Part shown: positions 260 through 51,643 of the stretch, in pieces | How positions within the stretch are numbered: the first letter of the stretch is position 1 | Layout of the letters: each line of letters starts with the position of its first letter | Source of the DNA: Candidatus Moraniibacteriota bacterium | Lineage (GTDB): Bacteria; Patescibacteriota; Minisyncoccia; Moranbacterales; UBA9337 | Reading direction: 5' to 3' | Assembly: GCA_028695135.1 (NCBI GenBank) | Contig: JAQVJM010000001.1 | Location: forward strand, 13,718-77,717 | DNA: 64,000 bases | Made by a program: the position numbers and the translations under genes | Notes under the pieces: generated by a model | What the model saw: only the letters and a program-made list of their open reading frames with translations | Told to the model about the DNA's origin: nothing | The model's database searches: none

Positions 260-348
260 TAGAACTGCGCTAAATTTTTTAGCAGCATTTTAATTTAATA
301 ACAAAAAACTTGGCGAACTTCGCCAAAGGTTTTGAATTTAATCCGGAA

Positions 349-765: not shown

Positions 766-879
766 GACTGTCTTTACGAATTACTAATTTATTACGAATA
801 TACGAATGAAATAGTGATTCGAAAGAAATTAATTAAAAATTAGTATATTAGTATAAATTAGTAATTAGTAAAGAAACAC

Positions 880-1347: not shown

Positions 1348-1477
1348 TAATCCGCTAAAATACAAATCTTATACGAATCTACAAATTTATAATTGCCATC
1401 AAATCTATGGGCACGAAGGCTCTAGCCATTTGTATATTGTAGCTAATTTGTAAATTTATAGGTATTAAGTAAAAAAC

Positions 1478-25913: not shown

Positions 25914-28900
25914 ATGAGGATTAACATAAAAATAAAATTATTATTAATAAGCTTTTTTTTCATTGCTTCAGGCGATGTTAAGGCTGATTTTTTCGATCCT
26001 TCTACGATCTATTCTCTTCCGCCTGCCTGGGGGACGGGAAGCCTGTTCACTATCGATCAGGACACTTGGACGGAAACCGATGAGGTGCCGATATATTTCG
26101 CAGATGATCCGGCCGAAGGAGTGACTGGAGGACTCGGCTTAGCTGTTAATCCTTTGACCGGAGAATATTATGCCATCATAAAATCGGCGGATGATTTGCA
26201 AGAAGATCCTGGATATTTAGTAATTCTTGATCCGACTACAGGGGAAGCACAAAGAATAGGGCAATTTTCTACAAGAATAAACAGTTTGGCTTTTGACTCG
26301 AGGGGAAACCTCTACGGAACAGCCGGATTGGGAGATGTGGCGACGGAAGGCCTTTTTTCCATAGATATTTCCGATGCTTCTATTACCAAGATAATGTCTT
26401 TGAGTGAAAGCGATTCAGGAAGAGCTTTGGCATATAACAAGGACGACGGGTATCTGTATTATGCATATGGCGTAGATATCCCCGACTCATGGTATGACAA
26501 GTTCATCGACAAGATAGACATTTCTGATCCGGATAATCCGGCCCTAATGAGTACCTTGGAAGCAGAGCCGAATGTTAATGAACGTCCGATTTCAGCGATG
26601 GTTTACATCGGTGGCGGAGAATTTTTGGCAGGAGATACTTGGTGCTATTTGTATAAGATAGATGTTGCTACAGGTGCTCTCACATACTTGAATGAGACCG
26701 ATGAATGTTCAAAAGGCCTTGCCGTACCTTGGGAAGTGGCATTGAGCGTTTCAAGCCTGAGTCCCGCCGATAACGCGGAAAATGTTTCAACTGGCTCAGA
26801 TTTGGAAATCGTTTTTGGCGATAACGCTTATCAAGGAACAGGCAATATAGTCGTGAAGAAGAGGGGTGATGATTCCGTCGTAGAGACGATAGATGTCTCA
26901 TCGTCCGATGTCACGGGCTGGGGAAGCGCAACTTTGTCGATTGATTTGCAGGACAATCTTCCTGCCAGCACCCACCTTTATGTGAATATCGATTCGGGAG
27001 CGATAAAGAATGCGGATGACGATGATTTTTCGGGAATATCGGACACGACAACTTGGAATTTCACTACCGATAATATAATTATTGAGACAGTTCCTGACGG
27101 AGAATGCTATGAGGTCGGGTCGGCCGAAGCTAGCCAGCCGGCTGACACCGTTCTAGAATATTCAAATGATGATCAGTCGTCCTGGACATATGCTCCGGTA
27201 GATCAAGGAGATGGAGGAGATTGCAATGTGACGGATATCCGTCTCACGTTGGACAGCCAATCTGACTCCGTGGGGGAAGATCTGGAGGCTGAATTTGTGG
27301 GAACTGTCTCGGACACAGAAGTTATCAGCAGTGGTGATGGCGGTGTAGATCTTTTGGAAAATAATCATGGAGCTTATGCTATCGTTACTGAGGAATCTTG
27401 GACTTATAATGTCGGCTATGACATTGAGATCGGAAGCACGGGAGATATTTATACAACTGGAGATTTTGAGGGCGTTACAGATTTTGATCCGACAGATGGT
27501 GAAGATATCCGCACGCCTTATTCAGGTACAGACGTATTTATCACAAAATTCAACGCGGATGGGACTTATGGGTGGACAAGAAACTTCCCGGGGGCTACAG
27601 GAGATCTAAAGCATGGCATGGCACTGGATAGTTCCGATAATGTTTATGTCGGAGGAGGATTTCAAGGAACGGTTGATTTTGACGATGCTGGAGGAACAGA
27701 TGAACACATTTCAGTCGGCTCTAGCGATACTTTTCTTACGAAATATAATTCGGACGGTTCATACGGCTGGACGATCACTTTTGGCGCAACTCAAATAGGA
27801 GGTGTTGCTGTGGATGATTCAGATAATATCTATATCACAGGGGAGTTCAGCCTGACTGCGAATTTTGACGGTACCGGTACTGGTCCGGATGAGCATACCT
27901 CTGTCGGAGACGAAGATATATTCATAACAAAATATAACTCGGACGGTTCATACGGCTGGACAAGAACTTTCGGCGGAACAAACGATGATAGAGGTTATGG
28001 AATTTCCATAGATAGTTCAGGAAGCGTTTTTGCAACCGGTTTTTTTCTGAACACGGTAGATTTTGATGGCACTGACGGAGTGGACAACCACACTTCTTCT
28101 GGCAGTCTTGATACTTTCATAACTAAATATAATCCTGATGGATCATACGTCTGGACCAGAACATTCGGTCCGGATATCGGTTATCAGATCGCTAATGACA
28201 GTTACGGAAATATTTTTGTAGTCGGAAGTTTTTTCGGTTCCCCGGATTTTGATGCCTCCGAACTGACGGAAGATATTCACACATCTGAGGGTTATGAGAA
28301 CGGCTTTATCACTAAATATAACAATGACGGATCATACGGCTGGACGAGGACATTTGGTGAATATGATGAAGATTTTGGATACGGAGTCGCAACGGATGAT
28401 TCCGGCAATGTCTTCATAACAGGAAGCTTTTTTGATACGGTCAATTTTGACGATACCGGCGGAACAGATGAGCATACCTCTGCCGATGATAGTGATATAT
28501 TCATCACCAAATATGATGCTGATGGATCATACGGTTGGACGAGGACTTTCAGCGGTGCGACAGGATATGACGAAGGCTATGACATCGCTACGGATGGTGA
28601 TAATGTTTTTGCAACCGGATATTTCTTAGGCGCGGTCGACTTTGATGATACGGGCGGAGAGGATATCGTTACAACTCCTTCAAATACTATAACCGGCGGT
28701 TTTATAGTCAAATATGCTAATGATGGATCATATGGAACGATATACTCAAAATATTCATTAAGCGGGACTTATGAAACTTCGATAGCCCCCTCATCTTTAT
28801 TGGCCTGGGATAGTTTGGAAATATCCCAAACGACTCCGGCCGGCACGGAAATCGAATATACAATCCTTGACAACACATGCAATAGCATATTGGTCGGACC

Positions 28901-31484
28901 GACGACCGAAACTTCCATAGATATATCTTCTATCGGAATCAGTGAGGATGAATTGTGTCTGAGGGCATCTTTTTCCACTACTGATTCTACGATAACAGGC
29001 GAACTGGAGAGTTGGACCGTCGATTATGAGACAGAGAGAAGCCTTGCGAGCTTCGATTATTCCACCGTAAGCGAAGATGAGCCTGCAGGCAACAGCGCTC
29101 CGACAGACATCTCTCTTTCAATCGATGCGGTTGATGAAGGAGTGGATATCGGCACCGTTGTCGGAACCCTTTCCACCACTGACGCGGACGGGGGGGATAC
29201 GCATACCTATTCATTCGCTTGTGCTACTCCTGGGGCGGATGATGCCAGCTTCCAGATCTCAGGATCGGATCTTTTGACTGATGAAGTTTTTGATTATGAA
29301 ACTAAGACCAGTTATGCTATTTGCATAAGGGCAGATGATGGCAATGGAGGAATCTATGACAAAAATTTCACGATAAATATTACGGATGTGGATGAAAATG
29401 GCAACGATGACACTGACGACACCGACGGAGAAGACGAAGATGAAGATGAAGATGACGACGAATACATAAACCTAAAAAGTTCCAAAGGCGGAAAACTGAC
29501 TTTTGACGTAAAAATTCCGAAAGACACAAAGGTCAAATCGGATTCCATCAAAGAATCCAAGGATGAATCGACAGAAATAAGGAATGTCGGCATCAAGACC
29601 AAAAAAGACAAAAAAGTCAAAGGGGAGCTCACCATAAAAGATAAGAAGGAAAAACCGGAGGATGTCGTCTTTCCGGAAGAGGTGGACCAGTGCACCCCCT
29701 ATCAGATCTTGGACATAGACGCGGAATTTTCCGATAAGGACATCAAGAAAGCGGAACTGACTTTCCGCGTCCCCAAGGGCTGGCTCAAGAAATACGACAG
29801 GGAAACCATGACTTTCGTCATAGGCAAGAAAGCGGCCAACGAGAAGATGCTTGAAAAGAACAAATGGGCCATCGTCCTTTCAAGCAGCTTGGTAAAGACC
29901 AAGGATGGCTATGATATCTATGAGGTTGAATCAGAATCGCTAGACGGCTATTGGGGAGTCTATGGATGCGGAGGAGGAGCAGGAGAGGATCGAGAGAATA
30001 GCGATAATAATAACAATAATGATAACAACATTGATGACAAGTCGCAGAAGAAAAAAGATATCGATAGAGACGGGAATGATGAGATAGCTATCGATCAAAA
30101 CGGAGATATTTCGGACGGAAACACTGACGGATATGAAGAATTCAGCGATCCAGACGGCTCATCTGACGACATCTACAAAATAGATGGGGATCAGGACGGC
30201 CAAACCGATTTCCTCATAGATACCGATGGAGACGGAAGTGCGGATGCCTATTGGGATCCAGATGACGGGATAGCGACCGATACCGGCATCGAAGAGGTGG
30301 ATGGCAAGACCGTGATTGCGATAGATACTGACGGAGACGGAGAATTTGACAGCTACTATTATCCGATAAGAGATGAGATAAGGGAAATAATAGATGTCCA
30401 ATCGAGCGAGAAAGATGATATAATTTCTTCAAATACGGTTAGAACAAGCGATGATAAGATGAATGGAATTATTAAAAATGAAGAGACGATCAGCGCTGTC
30501 TCAATAATAGGTCTCATAACGGGAGCTGGTGCGGTTATGGCTTCAGCCGGAGGAGCGATTCCTCTGGTTCCTTTTGTGCCTAATAATTTAAACTCGTCTT
30601 TTTTTTACAGGATGCTCTCGGCTTTTAAAAGGAGAAGATTTTTCAGTATTTTTCAGCTTATTCCTTTCTCGACGGCAACCTCTAGAGAAAAAATTGCTTT
30701 TCCTTTTGATAGAAAAGGAGAAGATCCTGCGTGGGGAATTGTTTTTGATTCATATACGAAACTGCCTGTTCCCGACGCGCTTGTCCAGCTGGTCGATAAA
30801 GACAGAGGCAAGATGGTTGAGCAAGTGATAACTGACAAAGAGGGAAGATATGGATTCTTAATAAAAAAAGGAGGAGAATATGTCTTAAAGATAAAGAAAG
30901 GAGAATATGAGATTAAGTCTGATGCTGGAAAAGACAGTCTTTATGGAAAAATTTACAGCGATCCGATATCTTTGAAAGAAGGAGAGGTGGCTAAAATAAA
31001 TGTTGCCCTGGAAGCAAAAGGTTTCAATTGGGATGCTTTTTCTGAAAATATGCTTAAGAGATACCATTCCTTTTTCTTGAGGTCGTTCAGCTATTTTTTG
31101 GATACGGTTTACATTTTAGGATTTCTTTTTTCAATATATGCTGTCATGAACTATCCGAATCTCATAAATTATATAATTTTAATATTATATATCGGATTGC
31201 TTGCCTATAAGCTTGTAAAATACTATTCGGCTAAAAAATTCGGTACAATCATAGGCAAAGAAAGCGGGAGGCCTCTTCCTTTCGCTGTCATAGAATTATA
31301 TGACAAGATTACCAAGCAAAGACTGAATTTTACGGTTTCGGATCTCTTGGGAAGATACTACCTTTTGGCTGATAATGGCGAATATATCATCAGAATTAAA
31401 TACTCAAGTAATTCGGAAGATTTTGAGGGAGAAGATAAAATAATCATAAAAGACGGAATTTTTAAGAAGGACTTAGTTGTTTAG
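25914..31484 (+). CDS. Giant secreted surface protein 1 (1856 aa)
   Basis: Signal peptide; SBBP beta-propeller repeats; Ig-like (Big_5-like) domain; cadherin-like repeat; poly-Asp/Glu tract; Ca-binding DxDxDG-type repeats; C-terminal TM/carboxypeptidase-regulatory-like module shared with protein 2. All read from the translation. Repeats are TKYNSDGSYGWTRTFGG..., Ig-like region is SLSPADNAENV...LYVNIDSGAI, cadherin-like stretch is DIGTVVGTLSTTDADGGDTHTYSF, Ca-binding repeats are DTDGDGSADAYWDPDDG. The C-terminal module has a ~330-aa counterpart in the downstream gene. Confidence 0.75.
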   Translation: MRINIKIKLLLISFFFIASGDVKADFFDPSTIYSLPPAWGTGSLFTIDQDTWTETDEVPIYFADDPAEGVTGGLGLAVNPLTGEYYAIIKSADDLQEDPGYLVILDPTTGEAQRIGQFSTRINSLAFDSRGNLYGTAGLGDVATEGLFSIDISDASITKIMSLSESDSGRALAYNKDDGYLYYAYGVDIPDSWYDKFIDKIDISDPDNPALMSTLEAEPNVNERPISAMVYIGGGEFLAGDTWCYLYKIDVATGALTYLNETDECSKGLAVPWEVALSVSSLSPADNAENVSTGSDLEIVFGDNAYQGTGNIVVKKRGDDSVVETIDVSSSDVTGWGSATLSIDLQDNLPASTHLYVNIDSGAIKNADDDDFSGISDTTTWNFTTDNIIIETVPDGECYEVGSAEASQPADTVLEYSNDDQSSWTYAPVDQGDGGDCNVTDIRLTLDSQSDSVGEDLEAEFVGTVSDTEVISSGDGGVDLLENNHGAYAIVTEESWTYNVGYDIEIGSTGDIYTTGDFEGVTDFDPTDGEDIRTPYSGTDVFITKFNADGTYGWTRNFPGATGDLKHGMALDSSDNVYVGGGFQGTVDFDDAGGTDEHISVGSSDTFLTKYNSDGSYGWTITFGATQIGGVAVDDSDNIYITGEFSLTANFDGTGTGPDEHTSVGDEDIFITKYNSDGSYGWTRTFGGTNDDRGYGISIDSSGSVFATGFFLNTVDFDGTDGVDNHTSSGSLDTFITKYNPDGSYVWTRTFGPDIGYQIANDSYGNIFVVGSFFGSPDFDASELTEDIHTSEGYENGFITKYNNDGSYGWTRTFGEYDEDFGYGVATDDSGNVFITGSFFDTVNFDDTGGTDEHTSADDSDIFITKYDADGSYGWTRTFSGATGYDEGYDIATDGDNVFATGYFLGAVDFDDTGGEDIVTTPSNTITGGFIVKYANDGSYGTIYSKYSLSGTYETSIAPSSLLAWDSLEISQTTPAGTEIEYTILDNTCNSILVGPTTETSIDISSIGISEDELCLRASFSTTDSTITGELESWTVDYETERSLASFDYSTVSEDEPAGNSAPTDISLSIDAVDEGVDIGTVVGTLSTTDADGGDTHTYSFACATPGADDASFQISGSDLLTDEVFDYETKTSYAICIRADDGNGGIYDKNFTINITDVDENGNDDTDDTDGEDEDEDEDDDEYINLKSSKGGKLTFDVKIPKDTKVKSDSIKESKDESTEIRNVGIKTKKDKKVKGELTIKDKKEKPEDVVFPEEVDQCTPYQILDIDAEFSDKDIKKAELTFRVPKGWLKKYDRETMTFVIGKKAANEKMLEKNKWAIVLSSSLVKTKDGYDIYEVESESLDGYWGVYGCGGGAGEDRENSDNNNNNDNNIDDKSQKKKDIDRDGNDEIAIDQNGDISDGNTDGYEEFSDPDGSSDDIYKIDGDQDGQTDFLIDTDGDGSADAYWDPDDGIATDTGIEEVDGKTVIAIDTDGDGEFDSYYYPIRDEIREIIDVQSSEKDDIISSNTVRTSDDKMNGIIKNEETISAVSIIGLITGAGAVMASAGGAIPLVPFVPNNLNSSFFYRMLSAFKRRRFFSIFQLIPFSTATSREKIAFPFDRKGEDPAWGIVFDSYTKLPVPDALVQLVDKDRGKMVEQVITDKEGRYGFLIKKGGEYVLKIKKGEYEIKSDAGKDSLYGKIYSDPISLKEGEVAKINVALEAKGFNWDAFSENMLKRYHSFFLRSFSYFLDTVYILGFLFSIYAVMNYPNLINYIILILYIGLLAYKLVKYYSAKKFGTIIGKESGRPLPFAVIELYDKITKQRLNFTVSDLLGRYYLLADNGEYIIRIKYSSNSEDFEGEDKIIIKDGIFKKDLVV
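27414..28794 (+). repeat. Tandem coding repeats (~60 aa units) encoding SBBP beta-propeller blades within giant protein 1
   Basis: Recurring (F)ITKYNSDGSYGWTRTFGG...DxxGNxxxTG units, at least 8 copies. Confidence 0.6.
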
Positions 31485-31635
31485 TTTCACTTTTAATCTT
31501 TTGTGGCATGATTATTTTACATATAGAGGGAATGATTTTTTGATTTGCGCTTGATTTTATTTTACTAATTCTCTCTCTTTCTGTCTGGATATACATTCCT
31601 TTTAAAATATTTTTAATCCTAACGAATAATTTAAG

Positions 31636-34600
31636 ATGGCCGATTTTAGCGGTGAAAAAATAAATAGGAGAATCCATATCTTCTTTTTTTTGCTTTTTAC
31701 TCTATTTTTATTTGGTAATAGAGCTAATGCATCCCCAGAAGACGATTTCGTGACGACCTGGAAGACAGATAATCCAGGAACTTCAAACAACACTTCAATA
31801 ACTATTCGAACGTCAGGAGGCGGATACAACTACGATGTCGATTGGAACAATGATGGCGTGTTTGATGAATTCGGCATTACGGGAAATGTTACCCATGATT
31901 TTGGCGTTGCCGGGACATATACTATCAGAATAACCGGTGCATTTCCAATGATTCGCTTTGGGGGACTTGGGGATTCAAAAAAAATCTTATCTGTCGATCA
32001 ATGGGGCACGAACCCTTGGGTCTCTATGTCGAATGCTTTTTACGGCTGCAGCAACTTGGAAATAAATGCTATCGACACGCCGGATTTGTCAGGAGTTACC
32101 AATATGGAATATATGTTCAGAGGCGCTTCATCTCTCGATCAAGATATTGGCTCTTGGGATGTTTCGACTATCGAAAATATGTACGGGATGTTCTATGAGG
32201 CCACGTCTTTCAATCAGGATATTGGCTCGTGGGATACCTCAAGTGTTACTGATATGACATGGATGTTTTACGGAGCCACATCTTTCAATCAGGATATCAG
32301 CTCTTGGAATGTATCTAACGTTGTCACGATGTATGAAATGTTCAAAAACGCTATTTCCTTCAATCAGGATATCGGATCGTGGAATGTTTCCACTGTTTCA
32401 AATATGTTTGGCATGTTTCAAAGCGCCACTTCTTTTGACGGTGATATAAGTGCATGGAATACTTCTAGCGTCACAGACATGAGAAGCATATTTAGATTTG
32501 CCACTTCTTTCAACCAGAATATCGGGTTGTGGGACGTTTCGAATATAACATCTACCACAGATATGTTCGGGGGCGCCACTTCCTTTAATCAGGATATTGG
32601 CTCATGGAACTTATCTAACGTCACTGACATGAGAAGAACGTTTGCGGGAGCCTCATCTTTCAACAAAGATATCGGACTCTGGAATGTTTCCAATGTTTTA
32701 TATATGGAAGGTATGTTCGGGGGTGCCACTTCCTTTAATCAGGATATCGGGTCGTGGGATGTTTCCAGTGTCACCGAGATGATCGGAATGTTCAGTTTTG
32801 CTACATCCTTCGATCAAAATATAGGCTTATGGGATACGTCCAGTGTTACCAATATGAACAATATGTTTTATGGCGCTTCATCTTTTAATCAAGACATAGG
32901 AGCTTGGAACGTTTCCAATGTTACCGATATGTATAGAATGTTTTTTGAGGCAGCATCTTTTAATGGAGATATAAGTTCTTGGAATACATCAAGTGTTGTC
33001 AGTATGCGAGATATGTTCAAAAACGCTATTTCCTTCAATCAGGATATCGGATCGTGGAATGTTTCCAATGTATTGTATATGGATGACATATTTGACGGAG
33101 TCTCTTTGTCTGTCGAAAATTACGATGGTATTCTTATTGGATGGAGCTCTTTGCTTTTGCAGAATAATGTAGTCTTTGACGCAGGAGACAGCCAATATTG
33201 TGACGGAGCCGATAATCGGGCTTATATTATTACCACATATAATTGGACAATTTTGGATGACGGACAATATTGTGGTCCGGCAGAATGTGGGGGGGCGGCA
33301 AAAAATTATAAATTCGACGAAACTGACTTCGAGGGAACTTTCTGTTCGGTTGGAACGGAGGATATAGTACCGTCTTTCCCGTCCTATGGAGGAATCATAA
33401 GTTGGACATGCAACTATTATACTGCCAGCATTAGTTGTAGTGCCAGCAGAGATGCGGTCTGTGGTGCGGCTGCTCAAAAATATGATTATAGGGACACTGA
33501 TTTCAACGGATCATTCTGCGCGACCGGGTCTGTTTTGGAGATCCCAACGTTTCCCGAACTGGGTCAGACGGCATTTTGGAGCTGCATATTTGATTCAGGG
33601 GAAGAAATGTGTAGTGCCAACAGACTGGGGTTTTCCAATTTTTACTCCATAGATGATGAATATCTAAGAATGATCGACGAAGATGATTTTGCGGGATTAA
33701 CCTCGGACGAGATTGCTGTTGATACTGCGGAGAATATTTTTTCTGCTCACGGAGCGACGGTTGATCCGACCAATAACGATGTTTATGCCGTTCTTTGGCT
33801 TTCATCTAACGGGCGCAGTTTAGTTAAAATAGACATGGATAATTATGAGGCTGAATTTATTGGAACAATGAGTGATAATTTTTCAAACATCGCTTTTAGC
33901 GATAGCGGAACACTTTATGGCATAACCGGAGACGGCGCAAATATACCATCTTCTCTTTTTGAGATAAATAAAACAGATGCGTCAGTAGTGCTTCTGGCAA
34001 CGTATGAAAGAAATTGGGACGGAGAGGCCATAGCTTTTAATTTTGATGATAGGCGGATGTACAGGGCTAGCGGTAATGATATTTATGCCATTGATCTTTC
34101 TGATGCCGAAAACCTTATAGATATCTCCGTCAATAACGGGGAATTACCATGGTCATCTAATGGTCTGCTGCACAGAGGAAGAGATGACTTTTATGTCGGA
34201 GGAAGTTGGGGTGAAGTATATTCTTTTAATTCATCTACAGAAACAGTTGAATATCTGGGAGACATTAATGATTCAAAGAGTATGTTTTTTTGGCCGCTCG
34301 ATATTCGCATCAGCATAGAATCTCTGTCGCCGCATAACAGAGCGACAGATGTCGCTGTCGATACCGATCTTCGAATAGTTTTTGATAAAGAAGTTTATAA
34401 AGGCGCCGGGAGTATATCGGTTAAAAAATCAAATGGCGGCACAATCGTTGAAAACATTGACATAAACAGAGAAAACATAACCGGTTGGGGAAGTGATACT
34501 CTCCATATAAATTTAGTCAATAGTTTAGAATATGAAACATCTTATTACGTAGACATAGACAGTACGGCTATAATGGATGTGCATGGTAATCCCTTTGCTG

Positions 34601-36159
34601 GAATTTTTGGCAATTCAATCTGGTCTTTTACTACCTCACAGTATTTTGAAGATTCTGTGGAAGATGATGTGGAGAAGGAAGGTGGACCACTTTTCATTAA
34701 AATAGAAAAAATAAAGGATATAATTTCTAACTCCTTATCTATCTTAGTCAAGGTAGAAAATTATGACAAGAGAAATCTTAATTTCAAAGTGAGGATAAAA
34801 AACGTGGAAACAGGCGATACGGAAACCGTAAAAATTACGAAGAAAGTCAACAATGACGGAGAAACGACTTTAAAAATAGAAAATCTTCTTCCGGGAACGG
34901 AATATTCCTTCAGGGCGAAGGTTTCTGAGGAAGGCAAAGATGATTATTCGGATTATTCAAACAGCAGAAGAGCCACGACAGATGAAGAAAAATCGTCGAG
35001 AACATTATTTCTCGATTTAACTGATAGCTTTTCGGATTTTGCAGATAATGGTCCTGAAATTGGAGAAGAAATCTCATCTAATCCTATGATAACGCCGACA
35101 TTTCCTGGATCTTCTCCCCAAAGCGCTTTATCTAGAGAGGACAATTCCGATGTAATTTTTCATAAGAATGCCATGAGAGATTTTGTAGATGAAAATCCGG
35201 CTTTAGCAGGCGCCACAGTCGCTACGGGCTTGATAGCCGGAGCATCGGCGGCCGGAGCGGCTAGCGCAGCGTCTCTTCCCTTTTTCCCTCTTTTCCCCAA
35301 TACTTTGAGCAGAAGACTTTCTGACTTGTTTAAAATTCTTCCGATATTGGCTTCTTCCAAAAAAAGATTCGCTTTGCCCCTGAGGAGGAAAAAGAAGGAG
35401 AGATATTGGGGAGTTGTTTTTGATTCATTCACTAAACATCCCATAAAAAACGTAGGTGTTTTTCTTTTGGACAGAGAAAGGGAAAGGATTGTCGATCAGA
35501 CTGTTACTGACGATCAAGGTAGATATGGATTTCTCATATCCAAAGATGGTGAATATGAATTGATGATAAAGAAGAGCGGTTATAAAATTGAAATGAAGAA
35601 AAAAAAAGACAGACTCTACGGAAATCTTTATACCGGACCCCAATTTTTTGAAAGTAAGAATATCATAAAATTGAACATTTCTTTGAATTGCGAGGGCTTT
35701 GATTGGTCAAGATTTGCTGTCAAGGTGATCAATCAATATAATTCTTTTTCGGCAAAATTAGTCAAATATACATTGGATGTTTTTTTCGTGACTGGTTTTT
35801 CTTTCTCCACATACGCCGCCTTTATTTATCCAAGTACTATAAATATCATCATCTTGGCAGCCTATATCTTTTTTCTTGTTTATAGGATTATAAAGCGCAA
35901 TAAGAATCAGTTCGGGACTGTAACGAGCAAGGATACCGGCAAACCGCTCCCTTTCACCGTACTGGAAGTTTATGATCCTATGGCAAACCAGAGGATTGCC
36001 TTTACTGTCTCTGATATTCTGGGAAGATATTATTTGCTGATAAATAATGGAAGTTATATCCTTAAGGTGAAAGCGGTCAATACGGAAGGAGAAACTTTTG
36101 AGGGGCAGGATAAAATAAGCGTAGAAAACGGAGTATTGAAAGAAAGCATCTCAATTTGA
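31636..36159 (+). CDS. Giant secreted surface protein 2 (1507 aa)
   Basis: Signal peptide; ~13 DUF285-type 26-aa repeats; Cys-rich region; beta-propeller-like region; Ig-like (Big_5-like) domain; FN3-like domain; C-terminal TM/carboxypeptidase-regulatory-like module shared with protein 1. DUF285 repeat unit is [25 protein letters not shown]; Ig-like region [12 protein letters not shown]...[10 protein letters not shown] is homologous to protein 1; the C-terminal module aligns along its length with the protein 1 C-terminus. Confidence 0.75.
32086..33091 (+). repeat. ~13 tandem 78-bp coding repeats (DUF285-like [20 protein letters not shown] units)
   Basis: Near-identical 78-bp units (e.g. tcctttaatcaggatat(t/c)gg(c/g)tc(a/g)tgg(a/g)a...) visible directly in the nucleotide sequence. 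Confidence 0.8.
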
Positions 36160-36238
36160 AAGCGTCTTGATGAAATTAGGATGGCGGATTAATTTTTCGC
36201 CTTTTTAAATTATTCTTTTTTATGTTAAAATTCAAGGT

Positions 36239-36945: not shown

Positions 36946-37581
36946 TTGAAACTTATGAAAAAATGCATCCCGGCAATTATAATAATCATGGTATTTTTGC
37001 TTTCTTCTTTTGTTTCTCAGGAATATTCCGATTTTCTGGGAAATTTTATTCTTGGTCACAAAATATTGGGAATTGTTGCCTATATAATAGCAGTTATACT
37101 GGCTATAGTCGTTGCCCCTCTTACAAGCATCCCTTTTATTCCTTTGGTGGTAGGCTATTACGGAGTCTTTTGGACGGTAGTGCTTAGCGTGATAAGTTGG
37201 ACAATAGGTTCTTTGGCGGCTTTCTGGATAGCCAGAAGATTCGGTGTTCCGGTAGTTGAAAAACTGGTTCCGATAAATGAGAAAAGAAAAATTTTTTATA
37301 AAAACATTCCAGAAAAAAGGTTGTTCTGGTATCTCATATTTCTCAGGATAATAATCCCGGTCGATATTCTCAGCTATATGCTCGGACTTTTTACAAATAT
37401 AAGTTGGAAAATTTTTGCCGTAACCACTTTTTTGGGAGTAATTCCCGCTATTGCTTTCTTATCTTTATTTGGCAATGTTCCCGTCGAATATCAATTCATT
37501 TTATTTTTAGCCGGTTCGGTCTTATTTATTTTGTTCTTATTTGCAAGAAGATTGTTGAAAAATAGAAAAAAATATGATTAA
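36946..37581 (+). CDS. DedA/TVP38 (SNARE-associated)-like membrane protein
   Basis: 211 aa, multi-TM, ...GVPVVEKLVP...FLRIIIPVDILSYMLGLF resembles the DedA family. Confidence 0.45.
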   Translation: MKLMKKCIPAIIIIMVFLLSSFVSQEYSDFLGNFILGHKILGIVAYIIAVILAIVVAPLTSIPFIPLVVGYYGVFWTVVLSVISWTIGSLAAFWIARRFGVPVVEKLVPINEKRKIFYKNIPEKRLFWYLIFLRIIIPVDILSYMLGLFTNISWKIFAVTTFLGVIPAIAFLSLFGNVPVEYQFILFLAGSVLFILFLFARRLLKNRKKYD

Positions 37582-37966
37582 AAAGATAAAAAAAACCGAA
37601 AAAGAATGGAAAAAAATCCTGACTTCCGAACAATATCGCATAATGCGCGAAAAAGGGACAGAGCCGGCTTTTTCTTGTGCTTGGAAAAAAATCGGTTCCG
37701 GTTCCTATTATTGTGCAGCTTGCGGTCTGCCCCTTTTTGAGTCGGAAAAAAAGTTTGAATCAGACACTGGTTGGCCGAGTTATTTCGAACCGATAAATCC
37801 GGGGCATATTGAAGAGCGCCAGGATAATTCTTTCGGAATAACTCGCACGGAAGTTATCTGCGCCAGATGCGATTCCCATTTGGGGCATGTCTTTAATGAT
37901 GGGCCTCCACCGACAGGAAAAAGGTATTGCATAAATTCCGTGGCTTTGAAATTTAGAAAGAAGTAA
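37574..37966 (+). CDS. msrB: Peptide-methionine (R)-S-oxide reductase MsrB
   Basis: YYCAACGLPLFES...GWPSYF...CARCDSHLGHVFNDGP...RYCINS; two CxxC zinc motifs and the catalytic site. Confidence 0.9.
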   Translation: MIKKIKKTEKEWKKILTSEQYRIMREKGTEPAFSCAWKKIGSGSYYCAACGLPLFESEKKFESDTGWPSYFEPINPGHIEERQDNSFGITRTEVICARCDSHLGHVFNDGPPPTGKRYCINSVALKFRKK

Positions 37967-38073
37967 GCCGGCGGGAAAGTAGAGCTGTGATGCTAGTGGC
38001 AGAAAGCCGTTAACTCTATCTGTAAAAGAGTAAAATTTCAAAATATATTTTCTTAAATGCTAATTTTAAATGT

Positions 38074-38625
38074 ATGGGAAAGGAAATAAAGGAAGCTTAT
38101 TTTGGCGGAGGGTGCTTTTGGTGTACAGAAGCGCTGTTTTTCAGGCTCAAGGGAGTGATAGATGTTATTTCCGGATATGCCGGAGGAACAATCGAAAGTC
38201 CTACCTATGAAAAAGTTTGTACGGGGAAAACAGGCCACGCCGAAGTTGTCAAGATAAAATATGATCCTGATATCATAGGTTATGAAACTTTGGTCAGCAT
38301 ATTTTTCTCAACCCATGACCCGACCACTCTTGACAGGCAGGGCAATGATACTGGAACCCAATATCGTTCGATAATTTTATATGGAAACGATGAGGAAAAG
38401 GAAATAGCGCAAAAAGTAATAGATGATTTAGAAAGTGAAGGAGTTTATGGCGATCCGATTGTTACCGAAATTGTACCCTTTGATAAATTTTATCCGGCTG
38501 AAGATTATCATCAGAAATATTATGAAAATAATCCTGAGCAGGCCTACTGTCAGGCGATAATCGCTCCAAAGCTAATAAAATTCAGGGAAAAATTTAAGAA
38601 ATATTATAAGGAAAGTAATAAGTAG
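38074..38625 (+). CDS. msrA: Peptide-methionine (S)-S-oxide reductase MsrA
   Basis: FGGGCFWCTEALF...GYAGG...PTYEKVCTGKTGHAEVVKIKYDP... canonical MsrA. Confidence 0.92.
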   Translation: MGKEIKEAYFGGGCFWCTEALFFRLKGVIDVISGYAGGTIESPTYEKVCTGKTGHAEVVKIKYDPDIIGYETLVSIFFSTHDPTTLDRQGNDTGTQYRSIILYGNDEEKEIAQKVIDDLESEGVYGDPIVTEIVPFDKFYPAEDYHQKYYENNPEQAYCQAIIAPKLIKFREKFKKYYKESNK

Positions 38626-38775
38626 ATAAAATGGTAGGATATTTTTTTAATTCAAATAAGACTGAAAAATATACCATTTAGATGCGCATCTTCCGATATC
38701 AATAGATATCGTCGATACATCGCCTGTCTAACCGTTCTGTCACACCACTCACAAGGCATTATTGCTTTTCTGCCA

Positions 38776-40962
38776 TCATAGCCTTTTTCTTTTTAAAAGA
38801 AGAGAATTGGTCACTACTGAAACACTGCTCATTGCCATTGCCAAGCCGGCGAATTCCGCTTGCAATAAGCCGAAAGCGGCTATAGGGATTCCGATACTGT
38901 TATAAAAGAGTGCCCAGAAAAGATTTTGCTTAATTTTTTGCATAGTTTCCTTGCTGAGTTTTATTGACTTGGCGACATCTCTGGCATCATTTTTAACCAA
39001 CACGATATTTCCGGATTCGATTGCAATATCGGCTCCTTTGCCCATAGCAATTCCTACATCAGCTTGGGCCAGAGCGGGTGCGTCGTTTATGCCGTCTCCG
39101 ACCATGGCTACTATGGAAGTTTTTTGAATTTCCTTTATTTTTGATACTTTCTCTTCCGGAAGCACTTCGGAAATTACTCTTTTAATTTCCAGTTTCCTTC
39201 CGATAGCTTCAGCGGTGCGCCTGTTATCTCCGGTAAGCATCACGGATTCTATTCCCATGGCAGACAGTATTTTAATTGCGCTCTTGCTGCTTTCCTTGAT
39301 CTGATCACTTATCGCTATTATGCCGATGATATTGCCATTTTCGGCGCACAGCACTGCCGTCTTCCCTTCTTCTTCAAGGGATAATTTTTTCCCTTTGATA
39401 TTTTCAGATATGTCAATTGAATTATCCCGCATGAAATTTTCCGTTCCGATCAGTATTTTATTGTCGTTCAAAAATCCCTCTATGCCATGTCCCGGAGATG
39501 TTCTAAATCCCTGGGCATTTTCTAAGGATAATTTTTTTTCTTTGGCTTTATTTATAATAGCCTCTGCAAGCGGATGCTCGGATCTATTTTCTATAGAAGC
39601 TGATTTTCTGAGAATATTTTCTTCAGAATAACCTTCGAAAGATATGATATCAACTACCTCAGGGAAGCCTTTGGTCAGGGTACCGGTTTTATCGAAAACA
39701 ACGGTTTTGATTTTATTGGATATTTCAAGAGTTGCGCCATCGCGGATCAAAATTCCATTTTCAGCTCCTTTGCCAGTTCCGACAATGATGGCAGTGGGGG
39801 TGGCTAGTCCGAGAGCGCAAGGACATGCGATTACAAGAACTGCTGTAAAGGTGAGAAGGGCGGTTACAAAACTTGATCCTATAAAGAAGTACCAGACGAT
39901 AAAAGTTATAATCGCGATTACAATAACCGCCGGCACGAAATAGCCGGATATCTTATCTGCATATTTTTGGATAGGGGCTTTGGATCCTTGAGCTTCCTCG
40001 ACAAACTTGATAATTTGAGAAAGAATCGTATCTTTTCCAACCTTGGTGACCTCAAATTTAAAAGACCCGGTCTTATTTATCGTAGCGCCTATGACCGAAT
40101 CTCCGGCTTTTTTTTCCACAGGAATACTTTCTCCGGAGATCATAGATTCATCAATGCTTGAATGGCCTTCGATTATTTTTCCGTCCGCAGGTATTTTTTC
40201 TCCTGGGCGGACTATTACCATATCTCCCGGAGCGACCTCATCTAGCGGAATATCTATTTCTTCCCCATCTTTTTCTACCCGGGCGGTTTTGGCCTGAAGT
40301 CCCATTAGCTTTTTGATAGCGTCTCCCGCTTTTCCTTTGGCGCGAGCTTCAAGCCACTTCCCCAAAACTACGAAAGTAATAAGCAGAGCCGATGTCTCAT
40401 AGAAAACCTCTCCTTCGATCAAATAAGTCGTAGCTAAACTATAAAAGTAGGCGGCGCTTGTTCCGACAGCGATAAGGGTATCCATATTGGCGGTCTTATT
40501 CCTTAGTCCTATCCAGGTTCCTTTGTAAAATCGAAGGCCGATATAGAATTGGACTATCCCGGCAAGGACTGATTGCAAAACCTTGCTTTCAAATGACATA
40601 TTGTGAAAAATCATAGTCAAAAGAAGAATGGGAAATGATAAAAACAGACTGATTATGAACGTCAGCCTTTCTTTTTTTATTTCCGTTTCTGAACTTTTTG
40701 CGTGATGTGCATGGTTATGATCGCTTTCGGGATAAGCTTCATATCCTGCTTTCTTGACAGCCGATAAGACGGCTTTTGAATCTCTCTCGTTATTATATTC
40801 AACTGAAAGTTTTTCCGAAGCAAGATTCACATCGGCTTTCTTTATTTGAGGAAGCTTTTTCAGCTTATCTTCTATGGTAAAAACGCAGGAAGCGCAATGC
40901 ATTCCTTTTATAGAAAAAACTTCTTTGTCCTTCTTGTTTTTCATGATGATGTCTTTTGTCAT
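38776..40962 (-). CDS. copA: Copper-translocating P1B-type ATPase
   Basis: N-terminal HMA (GMHCASCV), CPC motif ([11 protein letters not shown]), DKTGTLT phosphorylation site, GDGINDAP; 728 aa. Confidence 0.93.
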
Positions 40963-41065
40963 AAGCGGGCAATTCTTATCGGAAGAATTATTATTGGAAA
41001 ATAATCCTGTTTTATTTATGTTTAGTTATACAATTACGCGGTTGCGGGATTATGCAACTATTAAA

Positions 41066-41106
41066 CCTTTGCCTACAACGGTGTTGGGTGCCCGTTGCAG
41101 GCAAAG
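41066..41106 (-). repeat. Hairpin 1 of three tandem covarying hairpins (conserved core caacggtgttgggtgcccgttgc)
   Basis: cctttgcctacaacgg-tgttgggtg-cccgttgcaggcaaag; the A.C mismatch on + becomes a G.U wobble on the minus-strand transcript. Confidence 0.7.
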
Positions 41107-41121
41107 ATTTAATATTATTCC

Positions 41122-41165
41122 GTCCCTATCTGCAACGGTGTTGGGTGCCCGTTGCAGATAGGGAC
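41122..41165 (-). repeat. Hairpin 2 of three tandem covarying hairpins (perfect 17-bp stem)
   Basis: gtccctatctgcaacgg-tgttgggtgc-ccgttgcagatagggac; the outer stem sequence differs from hairpins 1 and 3 but is fully compensated. Confidence 0.75.
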
Positions 41166-41238
41166 GTCTGATTTCAATAAGTCATTTTATATAACCAGAC
41201 GTCTTTTGTCTCCGAATAAAATGCTTATTATCAGATCC

Positions 41239-41274
41239 TTGCCTACAACGGTGTTGGGTGCCCGTTGCAGGCAG
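41239..41274 (-). repeat. Hairpin 3 of three tandem covarying hairpins
   Basis: ttgcctacaacgg-tgttgggtgc-ccgttgcaggcag; begins ~16 nt after the stop codon of the upstream (minus-strand) gene. Confidence 0.7.
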
Positions 41275-41289
41275 AAATCCGATAATTTT

Positions 41290-42687
41290 TTATTCGACGA
41301 CCTCTATGGTTCCCGAGACCATTCCCATCCAACAGCTGAATTTGAACTTTCCCGCCTGGGTTGGCAAGAACTCTTTTATGCTGGTTTCTCCCGGAGTCAG
41401 ATTTATCTGTCCGTTGAACAAATTTCTGGATATTATTGCGTTTGTGCATCCGCTGGTTCCCCTGTCTTCAATCCGCCATTCAACCGGTATGTTTTTCCTG
41501 ACTTTTATATAATTGGGAGAATATCCGGAAGATGTGGCTGTTGTTTTGACTATCTGCTTCCCGTTTTCTATCAAAGGGAGTCCATCTATATCTCTCAGGG
41601 CGCTCTTGCCTGATTTCTGGCTTAATCCCGGCTCTTCCTTTTGATTTTTTGCCAGATCGCTTGCGCTTGTAAATCCTAAAGCATTCAATTGGGAATTTAT
41701 ATTGAATAAAGCGAAAAAAACTATCAGAATTCCGGCGGTTTTTGAAAAAATCAAAGCGGTATTGTGGCTGCTTATAAATTTTACGCTGGTCAGTCCTATG
41801 AGGAGAAGGGAAGGGAGCGTGCCGATGGCGAACATGAGCATGATAAGGCCTCCTGATATGAAACTTCCCGATAGCAGAGCGAATCCTTGAGCGGTTATGG
41901 TGAATCCGCAAGGCAGAAAAAAAGTCAGCGCGCCTATGAGAAAGGGGGATCTATTTTTTTTGTTCTGCGGAGCGCCGAAAATTTTATCTGTTGCGGATTT
42001 GGGCAGAGCGATCCTTATTTTTTTAAGCTGTTTGATCCCGATCATTTGAAATCCGATGATTAACATTGCCGCTGAAACGATGAAGACCAGTATTGACGAA
42101 AAAGCGGGCGAAAGGGTGAATTTTTCTCCTATCGATCCAAGCATTCCTCCCAATAAAGCATAAGAAAACAATCTTCCGGAGTTGAATAATATTTGGGGCC
42201 TGATCCTTCTGAAATATTTTTTTTCATCTGAATAATCCTCGTCCCATTTCTTCGACAAGGAAAGGACTAGTCCTCCTACCAGAGCCGCGCAGCTGGATAT
42301 GCCGGCAACCAGCCCGAGAAACAGAAAGGCTGTCAAAGGAGATGCGGGGGACGCTTGCGCGATATTTGTGATTTCCGATTTATCCAGCAGGAAAAAAGCT
42401 GTTATCAATAAGGCGGAAATCAAAAAACTGATCGCAGTGCCTGAGGATTTTCCTTCTGTGCCAGGCTTATTTTCCGATAATCTGTAGTTGTTATTCCTCA
42501 AGGCCTTGTTAATTTCCGGAATGTTTATTTTATTTTTATATTGAATGGTGACTGAATTTTTTTTCTGTGAAACATCGGCAGAGCAAATATTGGGGATCTT
42601 TTCAAGCTCGTTCTTTATGATCAGTTCGCAGGAAGAACAACGCATCCCATCAATATATAATATTTTAGTTTTCATCGTTTGCCGCAA
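41290..42687 (-). CDS. HMA-domain / DsbD-like transmembrane / C-terminal cupredoxin-like fusion protein (putative copper handling)
   Basis: N-terminal MRCSSCE HMA motif; membrane core with GISSCAAL and FFLPCGFT Cys-containing helices; C-terminal beta-rich domain ending FKFSCWMGMVSGTIEV. Confidence 0.5.
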   Translation of the reverse strand: MRQTMKTKILYIDGMRCSSCELIIKNELEKIPNICSADVSQKKNSVTIQYKNKINIPEINKALRNNNYRLSENKPGTEGKSSGTAISFLISALLITAFFLLDKSEITNIAQASPASPLTAFLFLGLVAGISSCAALVGGLVLSLSKKWDEDYSDEKKYFRRIRPQILFNSGRLFSYALLGGMLGSIGEKFTLSPAFSSILVFIVSAAMLIIGFQMIGIKQLKKIRIALPKSATDKIFGAPQNKKNRSPFLIGALTFFLPCGFTITAQGFALLSGSFISGGLIMLMFAIGTLPSLLLIGLTSVKFISSHNTALIFSKTAGILIVFFALFNINSQLNALGFTSASDLAKNQKEEPGLSQKSGKSALRDIDGLPLIENGKQIVKTTATSSGYSPNYIKVRKNIPVEWRIEDRGTSGCTNAIISRNLFNGQINLTPGETSIKEFLPTQAGKFKFSCWMGMVSGTIEVVE

Positions 42688-43132: not shown

Positions 43133-43525
43133 ATGGATGAAAAAAATAAGAAAATAATAATTGTTGCCGAAGATCAGCCTGAAGAGCTAAGCGCTCTTTC
43201 TGACAAATTGACTAACAGCGGTTTTGAAGTTGTGGGAACTTCCGATGGTGAAAAGTGTCTGGAGGCCGTTAAAAAAAACAGTCCGGATCTGATATTGCTG
43301 GATCTAGTAATGCCGAGAATGGGCGGCTTGGCGGTTCTCGAAGAATTAAAAAAAGATGAAAATCATAGATTTATTCCCGTTATCGTGCTTACCAATCTTG
43401 ACAGTCTGGGCGATATCCAAAAAGTCGCCGAAAGAGGAGTTCGCGACTATCTGATAAAAAGCGATTGGGATCTTGACGGGATAGTAGGGAAAATAAATGA
43501 TATATTAGGAACAAAGGAAAAATAA
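43133..43525 (+). CDS. Stand-alone response regulator receiver (REC) domain protein
   Basis: 130 aa, ...DLILLDLVMPRMGG...VIVLT...K CheY-like; no output domain and no adjacent kinase. Confidence 0.7.
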   Translation: MDEKNKKIIIVAEDQPEELSALSDKLTNSGFEVVGTSDGEKCLEAVKKNSPDLILLDLVMPRMGGLAVLEELKKDENHRFIPVIVLTNLDSLGDIQKVAERGVRDYLIKSDWDLDGIVGKINDILGTKEK

Positions 43526-50044: not shown

Positions 50045-51643
50045 TTATCGATTATTTGGAACTAATAATTCCTTATTGTCAAAATCATTCCGATCATCTT
50101 CCATTTCTTTCATGGAATTCTCTTCAAATGAGTAGGGGCCTATCAAGTCGGTTCCCAACAAAATAACCAAATCGAATCCCTCTGTTTCGTTTTCAGATAA
50201 TGAATATTTTTCATTTAATGTTGCTGGAAGTTTTTTGATCAATTCATCCAGAGTGAATGGGACTTGTCCATTTGTCATATCGATAATCTGTGTCGAGCTT
50301 ACCAATTTGGTCCTATCTCCCTGTAGGATGCCTATGTTTTTGATTTTCAATTTATCCTTGATAAGGCTGTTTATTTTTTCCAATAATTCCGGACTTCCGC
50401 TTTGGTTTATGATCGCAATATTGACTTCTTCCTTTTCAATCTCTTCCCTTCTTCTTTCCACTTCGTTGAGGTTAAAAATATTTTGGGCAAGTTCTTGGAT
50501 TTCGCTGTAATTTCCTACTCGAGGCACAAGGATGAAAGCGCGCATATTTTCATGATATATGTGCGAAACTTTTAGCAAGCTGTCCTTTTTCCATGCATCG
50601 ACGACCACATTATTGATATTTTGAGTATCCAGCTCTCTGGATAATTTCAGAAAACTTTCCATTTCCTCCAAGGAAATGTCGGTTTTTATATTTTCTCCCA
50701 GAGTATTGAGAATATCGTTTATCGCGAAAGGATTGAGGAGAACCTTTGTCGAAAATATCCTGTTTTTTATCGCCTGCATGACCTGCTGCTGTCTCTTGGC
50801 TCTTCCAAAATCCCCCTCGGGATCATTATGGCGTTCGCGGGCGTATTTAAGAGCCGTAGACCCGTCAAGCAGATGAGTTCCTTTTTCGAGAGCGAATAGC
50901 TCATAGCTGTAGTTGGGTCCCGGATAGTTGGGATCGTAAATATCTCTCTCATTATTTACGATTATCCCATCAATATCATCGATAAACTTTTCAAAGCCCG
51001 CGAAACTGGCTACGAAATAATAATTTATTTCAAGTCCGGTAATTTTTTCAACAGTTTTTTTAAGCGGATTTACACCTTTATTGTCGGCTAGTCCGTATTT
51101 GTAAATAGAGTTTATTTTTGCGTTGTATCCGGATTCGGGAATTTCCACGTAAAGATCTCTGGGAAGAGACAATAGGGCCGTTTTTTTATTTTTCGTATCA
51201 ATACTGGCTATCATTATCGTATCGGTCAAGCTTCCCCCGGCGCGTCCTTCTCCGGCGATTCCCAAAAGAAGAATGTTTATTCTTCCCTGATTTTCACCCC
51301 TAAGTTCAGCTCTGTCTTTCGCCGCCATTTTTGAAATGACGCTAAAAGCAGAAGGATTTTCTCCATTGCTTATTATTATTTTTGAACTTACTGAGCCTAT
51401 TTTCCAAAAAAAATATATCCCAGTGGCAGAAATTGACAAAAATAAAGCAGAAATTACAAAAACAAGTGTTTTTTTAAAAAAGGCGCCCTTTTTCTTTTCG
51501 GTTTTATCGGGGATAGGGTTGTTTTCAAATAACCGGGAGCCGTCAAAATCTTTCCGGATGTCCGGGTTTTTGCTGTAATTCGGACCATAACCATAAGCGG
51601 GAACGGTCTTTCTAATTTTGGGTCTTCTTATTATCCCGTCCAT
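50045..51643 (-). CDS. LytR-CpsA-Psr (LCP) family cell-envelope phosphotransferase
   Basis: N-terminal TM; ...INILLLGIAGEGRAGGSLTDTIMIASIDTKNKKTALLSLPRDLYV... LCP core. Confidence 0.75.
   Translation of the reverse strand: MDGIIRRPKIRKTVPAYGYGPNYSKNPDIRKDFDGSRLFENNPIPDKTEKKKGAFFKKTLVFVISALFLSISATGIYFFWKIGSVSSKIIISNGENPSAFSVISKMAAKDRAELRGENQGRINILLLGIAGEGRAGGSLTDTIMIASIDTKNKKTALLSLPRDLYVEIPESGYNAKINSIYKYGLADNKGVNPLKKTVEKITGLEINYYFVASFAGFEKFIDDIDGIIVNNERDIYDPNYPGPNYSYELFALEKGTHLLDGSTALKYARERHNDPEGDFGRAKRQQQVMQAIKNRIFSTKVLLNPFAINDILNTLGENIKTDISLEEMESFLKLSRELDTQNINNVVVDAWKKDSLLKVSHIYHENMRAFILVPRVGNYSEIQELAQNIFNLNEVERRREEIEKEEVNIAIINQSGSPELLEKINSLIKDKLKIKNIGILQGDRTKLVSSTQIIDMTNGQVPFTLDELIKKLPATLNEKYSLSENETEGFDLVILLGTDLIGPYSFEENSMKEMEDDRNDFDNKELLVPNNR

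Follow-up and report, generated by a model that had tools for sequence, protein, structure and literature searches.

A C-terminal module of two transthyretin-like sandwiches and a predicted membrane hairpin shared by tandem surface proteins of a Candidatus Moraniibacteriota genome

Several described systems place a common C-terminal element on many unrelated secreted proteins. In LPXTG/sortase, PEP-CTERM, PGF-CTERM and GlyGly-CTERM signals this element includes a hydrophobic stretch followed by a Lys/Arg cluster, and in the type IX secretion system (T9SS) of Bacteroidota a conserved C-terminal β-sandwich domain (CTD), carried by highly diverse and often giant surface proteins, is a soluble outer-membrane export tag of ~80–100 residues that is removed afterwards. 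Large surface proteins can also be held by a membrane crossing near their C-terminus, as in Mycoplasma adhesins, cadherins and integrins, which combine a large extracellular adhesive part with a cytoplasmic part for partners, and whose anchors consist of one helix and a tail that is short or unstructured. Bacteria of the candidate phyla radiation (CPR, or Patescibacteria) are thought to live attached to host cells, and how they retain their surface proteins and sense contact is little understood. Here we describe a C-terminal module carried by two neighbouring genes, open reading frames (ORFs) A and B, in a stretch of 64,000 nucleotides from a Candidatus Moraniibacteriota bacterium (assembly GCA_028695135.1, contig JAQVJM010000001.1, positions 13,718–77,717 of the forward strand). 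This whole stretch is referred to as the window, and its numbering is used for ORFs A and B and their surroundings.

The module follows the tripartite signals in its combination of hydrophobic segment and basic cluster, but has neither a signature motif nor a linked transpeptidase gene, and the protein most likely stays intact in the membrane. ORF A contains no LPx[TSA][GANS] sequence and the sole match in ORF B (LPWSS at residue 837) lies 670 residues from the C-terminus; a PEP motif is absent, and NCBIfam models of C-terminal sorting domains gave no match at E≤1. Nor does the hydrophobic segment with its basic patch form the C-terminal end, as ~250 residues comprising two folded domains and a hairpin come after the patch. 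T9SS CTD families gave no match at E≤1 (NCBIfam) or E≤10 (Pfam), and the module is unlike the T9SS tag in containing transmembrane (TM) segments and in its probable cytoplasmic location. The S-layer homology (SLH) domain PF00395 matched neither ORF. A preliminary description of this locus, made from the DNA letters, had judged the module unlike LPXTG, PEP-CTERM, SLH and T9SS CTD signals, and these comparisons of defining features agree. The CarboxypepD_reg or transthyretin-like families (PF13620, PF13715; e.g. the carboxypeptidase D regulatory domain, PDB 5aq0) are single soluble domains, whereas the module holds two copies around a membrane hairpin, with a stop-transfer region before them and a C-terminal location. 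With three predicted crossings and two folded domains it also differs from the anchors of Mycoplasma adhesins and type I receptors, to which no sequence or structural kinship was found. We propose that the module is a polytopic N-out, three-crossing, C-in membrane anchor and transducer, which holds diverse secreted domains outside the cell and presents a conserved transthyretin-like pair to the cytoplasm, a reading that we consider probable.

The shared module and its family

The C-terminal 337 residues of ORF A align with ORF B at 41% identity and 63% positives (E 1e-79), in keeping with the earlier view that the two tandem, same-strand ORFs end in one homologous module. Chance or low-complexity similarity is ruled out by this E-value together with motifs that remain conserved down to 25% identity. 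In both proteins the module runs, in the order first described, from an Ala/Gly-rich hydrophobic segment through a basic patch to a first sandwich, helices and a second sandwich (Table 1). The sandwiches proved to be CarboxypepD_reg-like, as had been claimed: PF13620 matches two stretches in each module, scoring 46.2 bits in module A and 51.4 bits in module B against a gathering cut-off of 32.3, and these are the only parts of the module with a Pfam match. The two sandwiches have the seven- or eight-stranded transthyretin-like fold and are related to each other (31% identity over 55 residues, E 7e-9). Past the first hydrophobic segment the module is strongly basic, with an isoelectric point of 9.25 (A) or 9.70 (B), while the ectodomains have values of 4.05 and 4.07 and net charges of −221 and −102, respectively. 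No further copy of the module was found in the window by tblastn.

The AlphaFold model of module B improved from a predicted local distance difference test (pLDDT) score of 71 with a 9-sequence alignment to 86.4 with 83 sequences, with a predicted template modelling score of 0.70. It contains two transthyretin-like sandwiches (model residues 89–182 and 257–336) around a helical hairpin (201–227 and 231–251), and residues 85–337 mostly score above 90. The roughly three TM helices previously placed between the sandwiches are replaced in the model by one short basic amphipathic helix (187–198) and the two-helix hairpin. Two low-confidence helices (18–42 and 53–69) lie ahead of sandwich 1.

Table 1. 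Coordinates of ORFs A and B and their parts, of other window features and of related loci; positions refer to the window unless a locus is named.
Feature	Location	Strand	Details
ORF A	25914..31484	+	1856 aa; GenBank MDD3497921.1, 'Ig-like domain-containing protein', Candidatus Moranbacteria
ORF B	31636..36159	+	1507 aa; GenBank MDD5651773.1 / MDX9855661.1, 'BspA family leucine-rich repeat surface protein'
ORF A block homologous to ORF B aa 677-1010	26043..27098	+	aa 44-395; propeller-like and Big_5 (aa 275-385)
ORF B block homologous to ORF A aa 44-395	33664..34665	+	aa 677-1010
Module A	30474..31481	+	aa 1521-1856 of ORF A
Segment A of module A	30486..30569	+	aa 1525-1552; uncharged, Ala/Gly-rich, ends IPLVPFVP; Kyte-Doolittle 1.85
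Basic linker of module A	30570..30731	+	aa 1553-1606; partly amphipathic, includes KRRR
Sandwich 1 of module A	30732..31019	+	aa 1607-1702; CarboxypepD_reg / transthyretin-like fold
Helical membrane hairpin of module A	31071..31226	+	aa 1720-1746 and 1750-1771; short NYPN turn
Sandwich 2 of module A	31242..31481	+	aa 1777-1856
Module B	35191..36156	+	aa 1186-1507 of ORF B
Segment A of module B	35197..35271	+	aa 1188-1212; Ala/Gly/Ser-rich helix, then basic amphipathic stretch (aa 1223-1239) and basic patch
Sandwich 1 of module B	35410..35691	+	aa 1259-1352; PF13620
Helical membrane hairpin of module B	35746..35898	+	aa 1371-1397 and 1401-1421; YPSTIN turn; pLDDT >90
Sandwich 2 of module B	35914..36156	+	aa 1427-1507
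rpsL-rpsG-fusA	310-3598		start of window
Terminator-like hairpin and T-run	36183-36201		24 nt past ORF B stop codon
Oxidative-/metal-stress cluster	37574-42687		MsrB, MsrA, two membrane proteins (see text)
Receiver-domain response regulator	43133-43525		stand-alone, 130 aa
Cell-envelope genes	50045-51643, 53821-54960, 60181-61005		LCP (LytR_cpsA_psr), YkuD L,D-transpeptidase, Lgt
DHp+CA-only kinases	L046 6168-6914; L056 3472-4167; L017 7310-8026; L021 11238-11936; L022 11239-11937; L084 second ORF
Loci with M50 gene upstream	L029, L034, L041, L047, L050, L053, L055, L065, L066, L071, L072, L073, L080
Loci with u323/u252	L007, L013, L016, L018, L019, L023, L025, L028, L030, L032, L033, L037, L058, L059

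The exact sequences of ORFs A and B are present in GenBank, from Candidatus Moranbacteria metagenome-assembled genomes (MAGs), under labels that leave the C-terminal part unannotated. No Pfam, NCBIfam or PDB entry for the module was found, nor any curated model or solved structure covering the two-sandwich and hairpin architecture as a whole, and full-text literature searches, whose coverage falls short of all journals, returned no description of it. The suggestion that the module is undescribed is therefore upheld within these sources.

Word-indexed protein searches gave only 7 and 24 relatives, too few to survey domain fusions. A profile (A1) built from nine sequences, including ORF B, was run exhaustively against 1.84 billion representative proteins and matched 6,104 of them at E≤1e-3, 3,963 at E≤1e-10 and 1,957 at E≤1e-30, counted as 50%-identity clusters. 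Giant proteins of 3,865–6,850 residues with 22–30 tandem CarboxypepD_reg-like repeats (P0020, P0036, P0071, P0089) were rejected as family members; they match the sandwich part of the profile only and inflate the weaker match counts. Apart from a few of these, the best 150 profile matches cover the whole module. The protein identical to ORF A (P0010) is matched at E 1.3e-119 over profile positions 30–365, corresponding to residues 1492–1855 of 1856. ORF B having been used to build the profile, its independent support comes from the alignment with ORF A and from its end-to-end match (45%) to P0046, itself a family match at residues 1205–1508 of 1509.

The module lies at the extreme C-terminus, with 0–2 residues after it in 129 of 153 members, and is borne by proteins of 245–4077 residues whose N-terminal parts are very different and which begin with a signal-like hydrophobic segment in 91 of 108 full-length members. 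Several sandwich positions (GRYGF, WG.V.D..TK and several invariant Gly, Tyr and Asp residues) are kept across members at 25% identity. The GTDB species genomes contain at least 403 matched stretches that encode a relative, and the locus and neighbour statistics given below rest on the best 80 of these. By name, 69 of the 80 loci belong to CPR lineages (Paceibacteria, Moran-, Nomura-, Lloyd-, Vogel- and Campbellbacteria, 'Saccharibacteria' and others), 7 are given only as 'bacterium' and 4 are other. The last four (L003, L004, L005, L006) come from MAGs labelled Bdellovibrionales, Bacteroidales or Chlorobiaceae and could be mis-binned CPR contigs, cases of mislabelling or real transfer outside the CPR. 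No phage-borne copies were found in IMG/VR viral contigs. The profile search thus bears out the idea of a genuine cassette, on very diverse secreted ectodomains and concentrated in CPR genomes. Ectodomains and modules appear to recombine, because P0029 is closer to ORF A in its ectodomain (48% identity over 670 residues) than in its module (only 36%), whereas ORFs A and B share 41% identity in the module but little elsewhere.

Predicted topology, kinase fusions and alternative explanations

The family profile begins with segment A, ~24 uncharged residues with small-xxx-small spacing that end in P-L-F-x-S-P, followed by segment B, ~17 Leu-rich residues that often include one Asp/Glu and one Arg. 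Family-wide there are therefore two hydrophobic segments ahead of sandwich 1, and not the one originally described. Segment B is followed by a basic cluster, with K/R frequencies of 0.80–0.96 in three adjacent profile columns, and then, in order, by sandwich 1, a Lys-rich amphipathic helix, helix C, a turn of the form N-P-S-x-x-N, helix D, a second basic cluster and sandwich 2. Summed per alignment column, K/R amounts to ~3.9 after segment B, ~4.3 before the hairpin and ~3.0 after it, giving a total of ~11 per sequence on the sandwich side compared to ~0.2 each in the A–B turn and the hairpin turn. By the positive-inside rule, this clustering of basic residues on the sandwich side argues that the sandwiches are cytoplasmic.

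A second indication comes from relatives in which the module is fused to a histidine kinase. The 943-residue protein P0132 consists of a signal peptide, a Cys-rich ectodomain of GWINF repeats, a complete module, ~50 polar residues, and HisKA and HATPase_c domains. It is encoded on a 3,991-bp ENA groundwater contig (locus L081); a 99% identical gene lies on a 60.9-kb JGI contig from another project (L082), and L083 encodes a 70%-identical orthologue. HisKA/DHp (dimerisation and histidine phosphotransfer) and HATPase_c domains are present in all three and absent from ORFs A and B by Pfam. As a kinase core depends on cytoplasmic ATP, and sandwich 2 is separated from it by no hydrophobic segment in any of the three fused ORFs, sandwich 2 would be cytoplasmic in these proteins; sandwich 1 would be cytoplasmic too, because the hairpin makes two crossings. 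Since the ectodomain is exported, an odd number of crossings must then precede sandwich 1, so only one of segments A and B would span the membrane. Consistent with this, segments A and B are both strongly hydrophobic (both <1 kcal/mol) in none of 138 members. In the window proteins the segment B region is broken by KRRR (A) or RR..K..KK (B) and is not TM-like, module A having its basic linker in the place of the hydrophobic segment B found in most family members. This leaves the Ala/Gly-rich segment A as the crossing, and in the subfamily of ORFs A and B it is likely to be the single one before sandwich 1. The module of P0132 shares 32–37% identity with the window modules across sandwich 1, hairpin and sandwich 2, and we infer by homology that the N-out, three-crossing, C-in topology carries over to the window proteins. 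Both sandwiches are thus most likely cytoplasmic, and the surface-exposed transthyretin-like domains implied by the preliminary description are probably wrong in view of the K/R distribution and the direct kinase fusions.

Kinases and receivers are also encoded next to module genes. The fused gene of L082 is followed, 16 nt downstream, by the start of a stand-alone receiver gene; in L084 a 234-residue kinase begins five codons after the stop of the module gene on the same strand; and the module gene of L087 is succeeded on the same strand by a PAS-kinase and then a receiver. In the GTDB loci, kinases of 231–264 residues, without a TM segment and with the H-box near the N-terminus, adjoin module genes in several arrangements and rank among the best matches to the kinase part of the fused proteins (28–41% identity). 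Two-component genes are commoner close to module genes, at 18 of 276 up to two genes away and 12 of 805 at greater distance (odds ratio 4.6, Fisher p 5e-5). A distinct histidine kinase subfamily of 231–248 residues can be recognised here, made up of DHp and CA (catalytic and ATP-binding) domains only, with the H-box near the N-terminus and a motif SL.AMKW..KM..DGDFG, and found either beside module genes or fused to the module in L081–L083 (Table 1).

In the mechanism that we propose, a Sec signal peptide would export the very acidic ectodomain until export is halted at one hydrophobic segment. In many relatives this would be the Leu-rich segment B, and in the window proteins the Ala/Gly-rich segment A, and the basic patch and sandwich 1 would be left in the cytoplasm. 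The tight two-helix hairpin would then pass through the membrane and back, and sandwich 2 would end in the cytoplasm. Variable surface domains, in the window adhesin-like repeats, would in this way be fixed in the cytoplasmic membrane without a sortase, and a rigid transthyretin-like pair would be presented inside the cell. In one subfamily the pair would connect to a histidine kinase that lacks a sensor of its own and to a stand-alone receiver of the CheY-like type, fused or encoded adjacent, and there the module may act as a transmembrane receptor, a signalling role supported by the fused and adjacent genes of relatives. For the window proteins themselves we infer any role in signalling or docking; their cytoplasmic pair would probably dock a partner, or serve as a plug that resists pull-out, or both.

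If segments A and B both spanned the membrane, the module would instead be a four-crossing anchor with its sandwiches outside, as a stalk or as domains binding the cell wall or S-layer. Two hydrophobic segments do precede sandwich 1 in most members, transthyretin- and CnaB-type sandwiches are typically extracellular in bacterial adhesins, and the nearest structural neighbours of the module's sandwiches are extracellular domains (SdrD B, CnaB, pilins, SusC NTE, SlaB). Such an arrangement is nevertheless improbable, as it would place the three strongly basic clusters outside and almost no charge inside, would remove the fused kinase cores of L081–L083 from cytoplasmic ATP with no TM segment in between, and would require both segments to span although they are strongly hydrophobic together in no member and segment B is broken in the window proteins. 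We regard as very unlikely the further idea of a cleaved sorting signal, in which a sortase-, exosortase- or rhomboid-like enzyme would recognise the hydrophobic segment and basic patch and release the ectodomain or transfer it to wall or lipid, the rest of the module being a leftover or a recognition platform. On inspection, the small-residue hydrophobic segment, the (I/V)P(L/F)(F/L)..P motif, the second hydrophobic segment and the RKK cluster resemble a tripartite signal, and ~14 loci have a Peptidase_M50 gene directly upstream of the module gene. However, neither an LPXTG nor a PEP motif is present, the signal-like hydrophobic and basic part is the least conserved region of the module, and the ~250 residues after it are conserved and confidently folded. 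A Pfam scan of 40 window ORFs gave no sortase, exosortase, rhomboid or M50 protease, no neighbour is kept across different contexts, and the M50 link falls within one syntenic block; moreover, the usual substrates of M50 proteases are N-in. The 80 loci therefore lend no support to the sorting cassette first envisaged, with its sortase- or exporter-like partner, and the module is a folded unit of 300 residues and not a terminal tripartite signal.

It is conceivable, though we doubt it, that the module has the three-crossing topology and nothing more, its sandwiches having no partner and its crossings and folded plugs serving purely to resist the pull-out of a long load-bearing protein. Such an anchor would fit an organism with possibly limited wall anchoring; the module is borne by ectodomains of every kind and size, and most of the 80 loci, like the window genes, have no adjacent signalling gene. 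The conservation of the sandwiches nevertheless exceeds the apparent needs of a plug, and the kinase-linked subfamily indicates that the pair can pass on information. The proposal of a three-crossing anchor and transducer has its own difficulties. By a simple Hessa-scale sum segments A and B are only marginally hydrophobic (medians 2.7 and 5.4 kcal/mol), the anticorrelation between them is weak (rho −0.16, p 0.055), and the AlphaFold model is weak at these segments (pLDDT 43–81). The fused genes are known from only two distinct lineages, and the kinase link is confined to one subfamily, with GWINF-repeat ectodomains of ~600–950 residues. The test for enrichment of two-component genes takes no account of the shared ancestry of the loci. 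Lastly, no kinase lies beside the window genes, and none of the linked type was found anywhere in the window.

Ectodomains and gene neighbourhoods

ORF A consists of a Sec-type signal peptide (FFFIASGDVKA|D), a propeller-like block, Big_5, SBBP repeats, a cadherin-like domain, acidic repeats of Ca-binding type and the module, and ORF B of a Sec-type signal peptide (cleavage site ANA|S), DUF285 repeats, Cys-containing repeats, a propeller-like block, Big_5, an fn3-like domain and the module. The domain content previously assigned from the sequence is largely recovered by Pfam, with SBBP and Big_5 matches in ORF A (cadherin slightly below cut-off) and DUF285 (E 3e-172) and Big_5 matches in ORF B (fn3 slightly below cut-off). 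DUF285 repeats are typical of Mollicutes surface proteins. The ectodomains are, however, not completely different as had been stated, since a second block of ~350 residues (A 44–395, B 677–1010) aligns at 33% identity (E 9e-46); this propeller-like and Big_5 block is N-terminal in ORF A and mid-protein in ORF B. Because the second homologous block occupies differing positions, ORFs A and B are better described, from their sequences, as mosaic paralogues than as unrelated ectodomains on a common anchor. The G+C content of the ectodomain-coding part of ORF A (26001–30000) is 0.446–0.460 compared to 0.36–0.40 in the module-coding part (30001–32000) and flanks, which could reflect a Gly/Asp/Thr-rich composition or a mosaic origin.

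The two genes are separated by 151 nt and may be co-transcribed, because no terminator-like hairpin lies within the gap and one is present after ORF B (Table 1). The genes around them are ordinary chromosomal ones (rpsL, rpsG, fusA, tuf, a ribosomal protein cluster, M23 peptidase, alpha-amylase). Downstream of ORF B is an oxidative- and metal-stress cluster encoding MsrB, MsrA, a copper-type P-type ATPase with HMA (minus strand) and a DsbD_2-cupredoxin-HMA membrane protein (minus strand), and cell-envelope genes also lie nearby, among them a YkuD L,D-transpeptidase that bears a Big_5 domain like those in ORFs A and B. Situated 7 kb downstream of ORF B, beyond genes on the opposite strand, is the gene for a stand-alone receiver that clusters by similarity with those adjoining module genes elsewhere; we give it little weight.

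A universal partner gene was rejected, as all-against-all clustering of neighbours in the 80 loci gave no gene common to all contexts. Three separate contexts recur, namely an M50 gene, the module gene and rpsL; u323/u252 with the module gene; and the module gene beside a kinase or receiver. In ~14 loci Peptidase_M50, the module gene, rpsL, rpsG and fusA form one syntenic block in which a small site-2-protease-like M50 gene is immediately upstream on the same strand, a context that could be plain synteny or a processing link. The window itself begins with rpsL-rpsG-fusA, but its module genes are 22 kb away. In a further ~14 loci the secreted proteins u323 and/or u252, whose function is unassigned, are encoded up- or downstream of the module gene. 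The ~320-residue u323 has a C-terminal TM segment and a weak resemblance to WxLIP_PGBD (E 0.03–0.06), and its ~250-residue partner begins YVASSSNYRIQ.DSVN.GG; this grouping is reminiscent of the WxL cell-surface clusters known from Firmicutes. Both the M50 and u323/u252 contexts may reflect synteny within clades, and neither is present beside the window module genes.

Implications for surface proteins and signalling in the CPR

The kinase-linked subfamily resembles chemoreceptor–CheA–CheY and accessory-sensor kinase systems in joining a membrane protein with a large ectodomain to a soluble DHp+CA kinase and a single-domain receiver, and by this analogy a split or fused sensor kinase is a plausible model for how it works. 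It differs from CheA systems in being of the HisKA type, and the transthyretin-like pair sits where a HAMP, PAS or coiled-coil region is usual. The comparisons with receptor kinases and with adhesins are functional analogies and not family membership: what appears to be new is the architecture, a widespread and unannotated anchor and transducer on membrane-anchored surface receptors, the kind of receptor being known. We suggest only tentatively, as a possibility that we would not expect to hold, that the module defines a CPR-wide superfamily of transmembrane receptors, whose grafted ectodomains would report contact with host or ligand via a dimerising transthyretin-like pair in the place of HAMP or PAS. 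If so, the giant adhesins of the window would be host-contact sensors as well as attachment devices, and bacterial signalling in episymbionts would have, in the module, an input and transduction architecture not recognised before.

Being present on thousands of secreted CPR proteins that include the largest, the module can serve as a sequence tag by which the membrane-anchored surface proteins of any such genome are catalogued. Folded domains that probably lie inside the cell and not outside would change which parts of these proteins are candidate host-binding surfaces. Finally, the kinase fusions suggest a testable way in which events at the cell surface could reach gene regulation or behaviour in organisms that have very few recognisable sensors.

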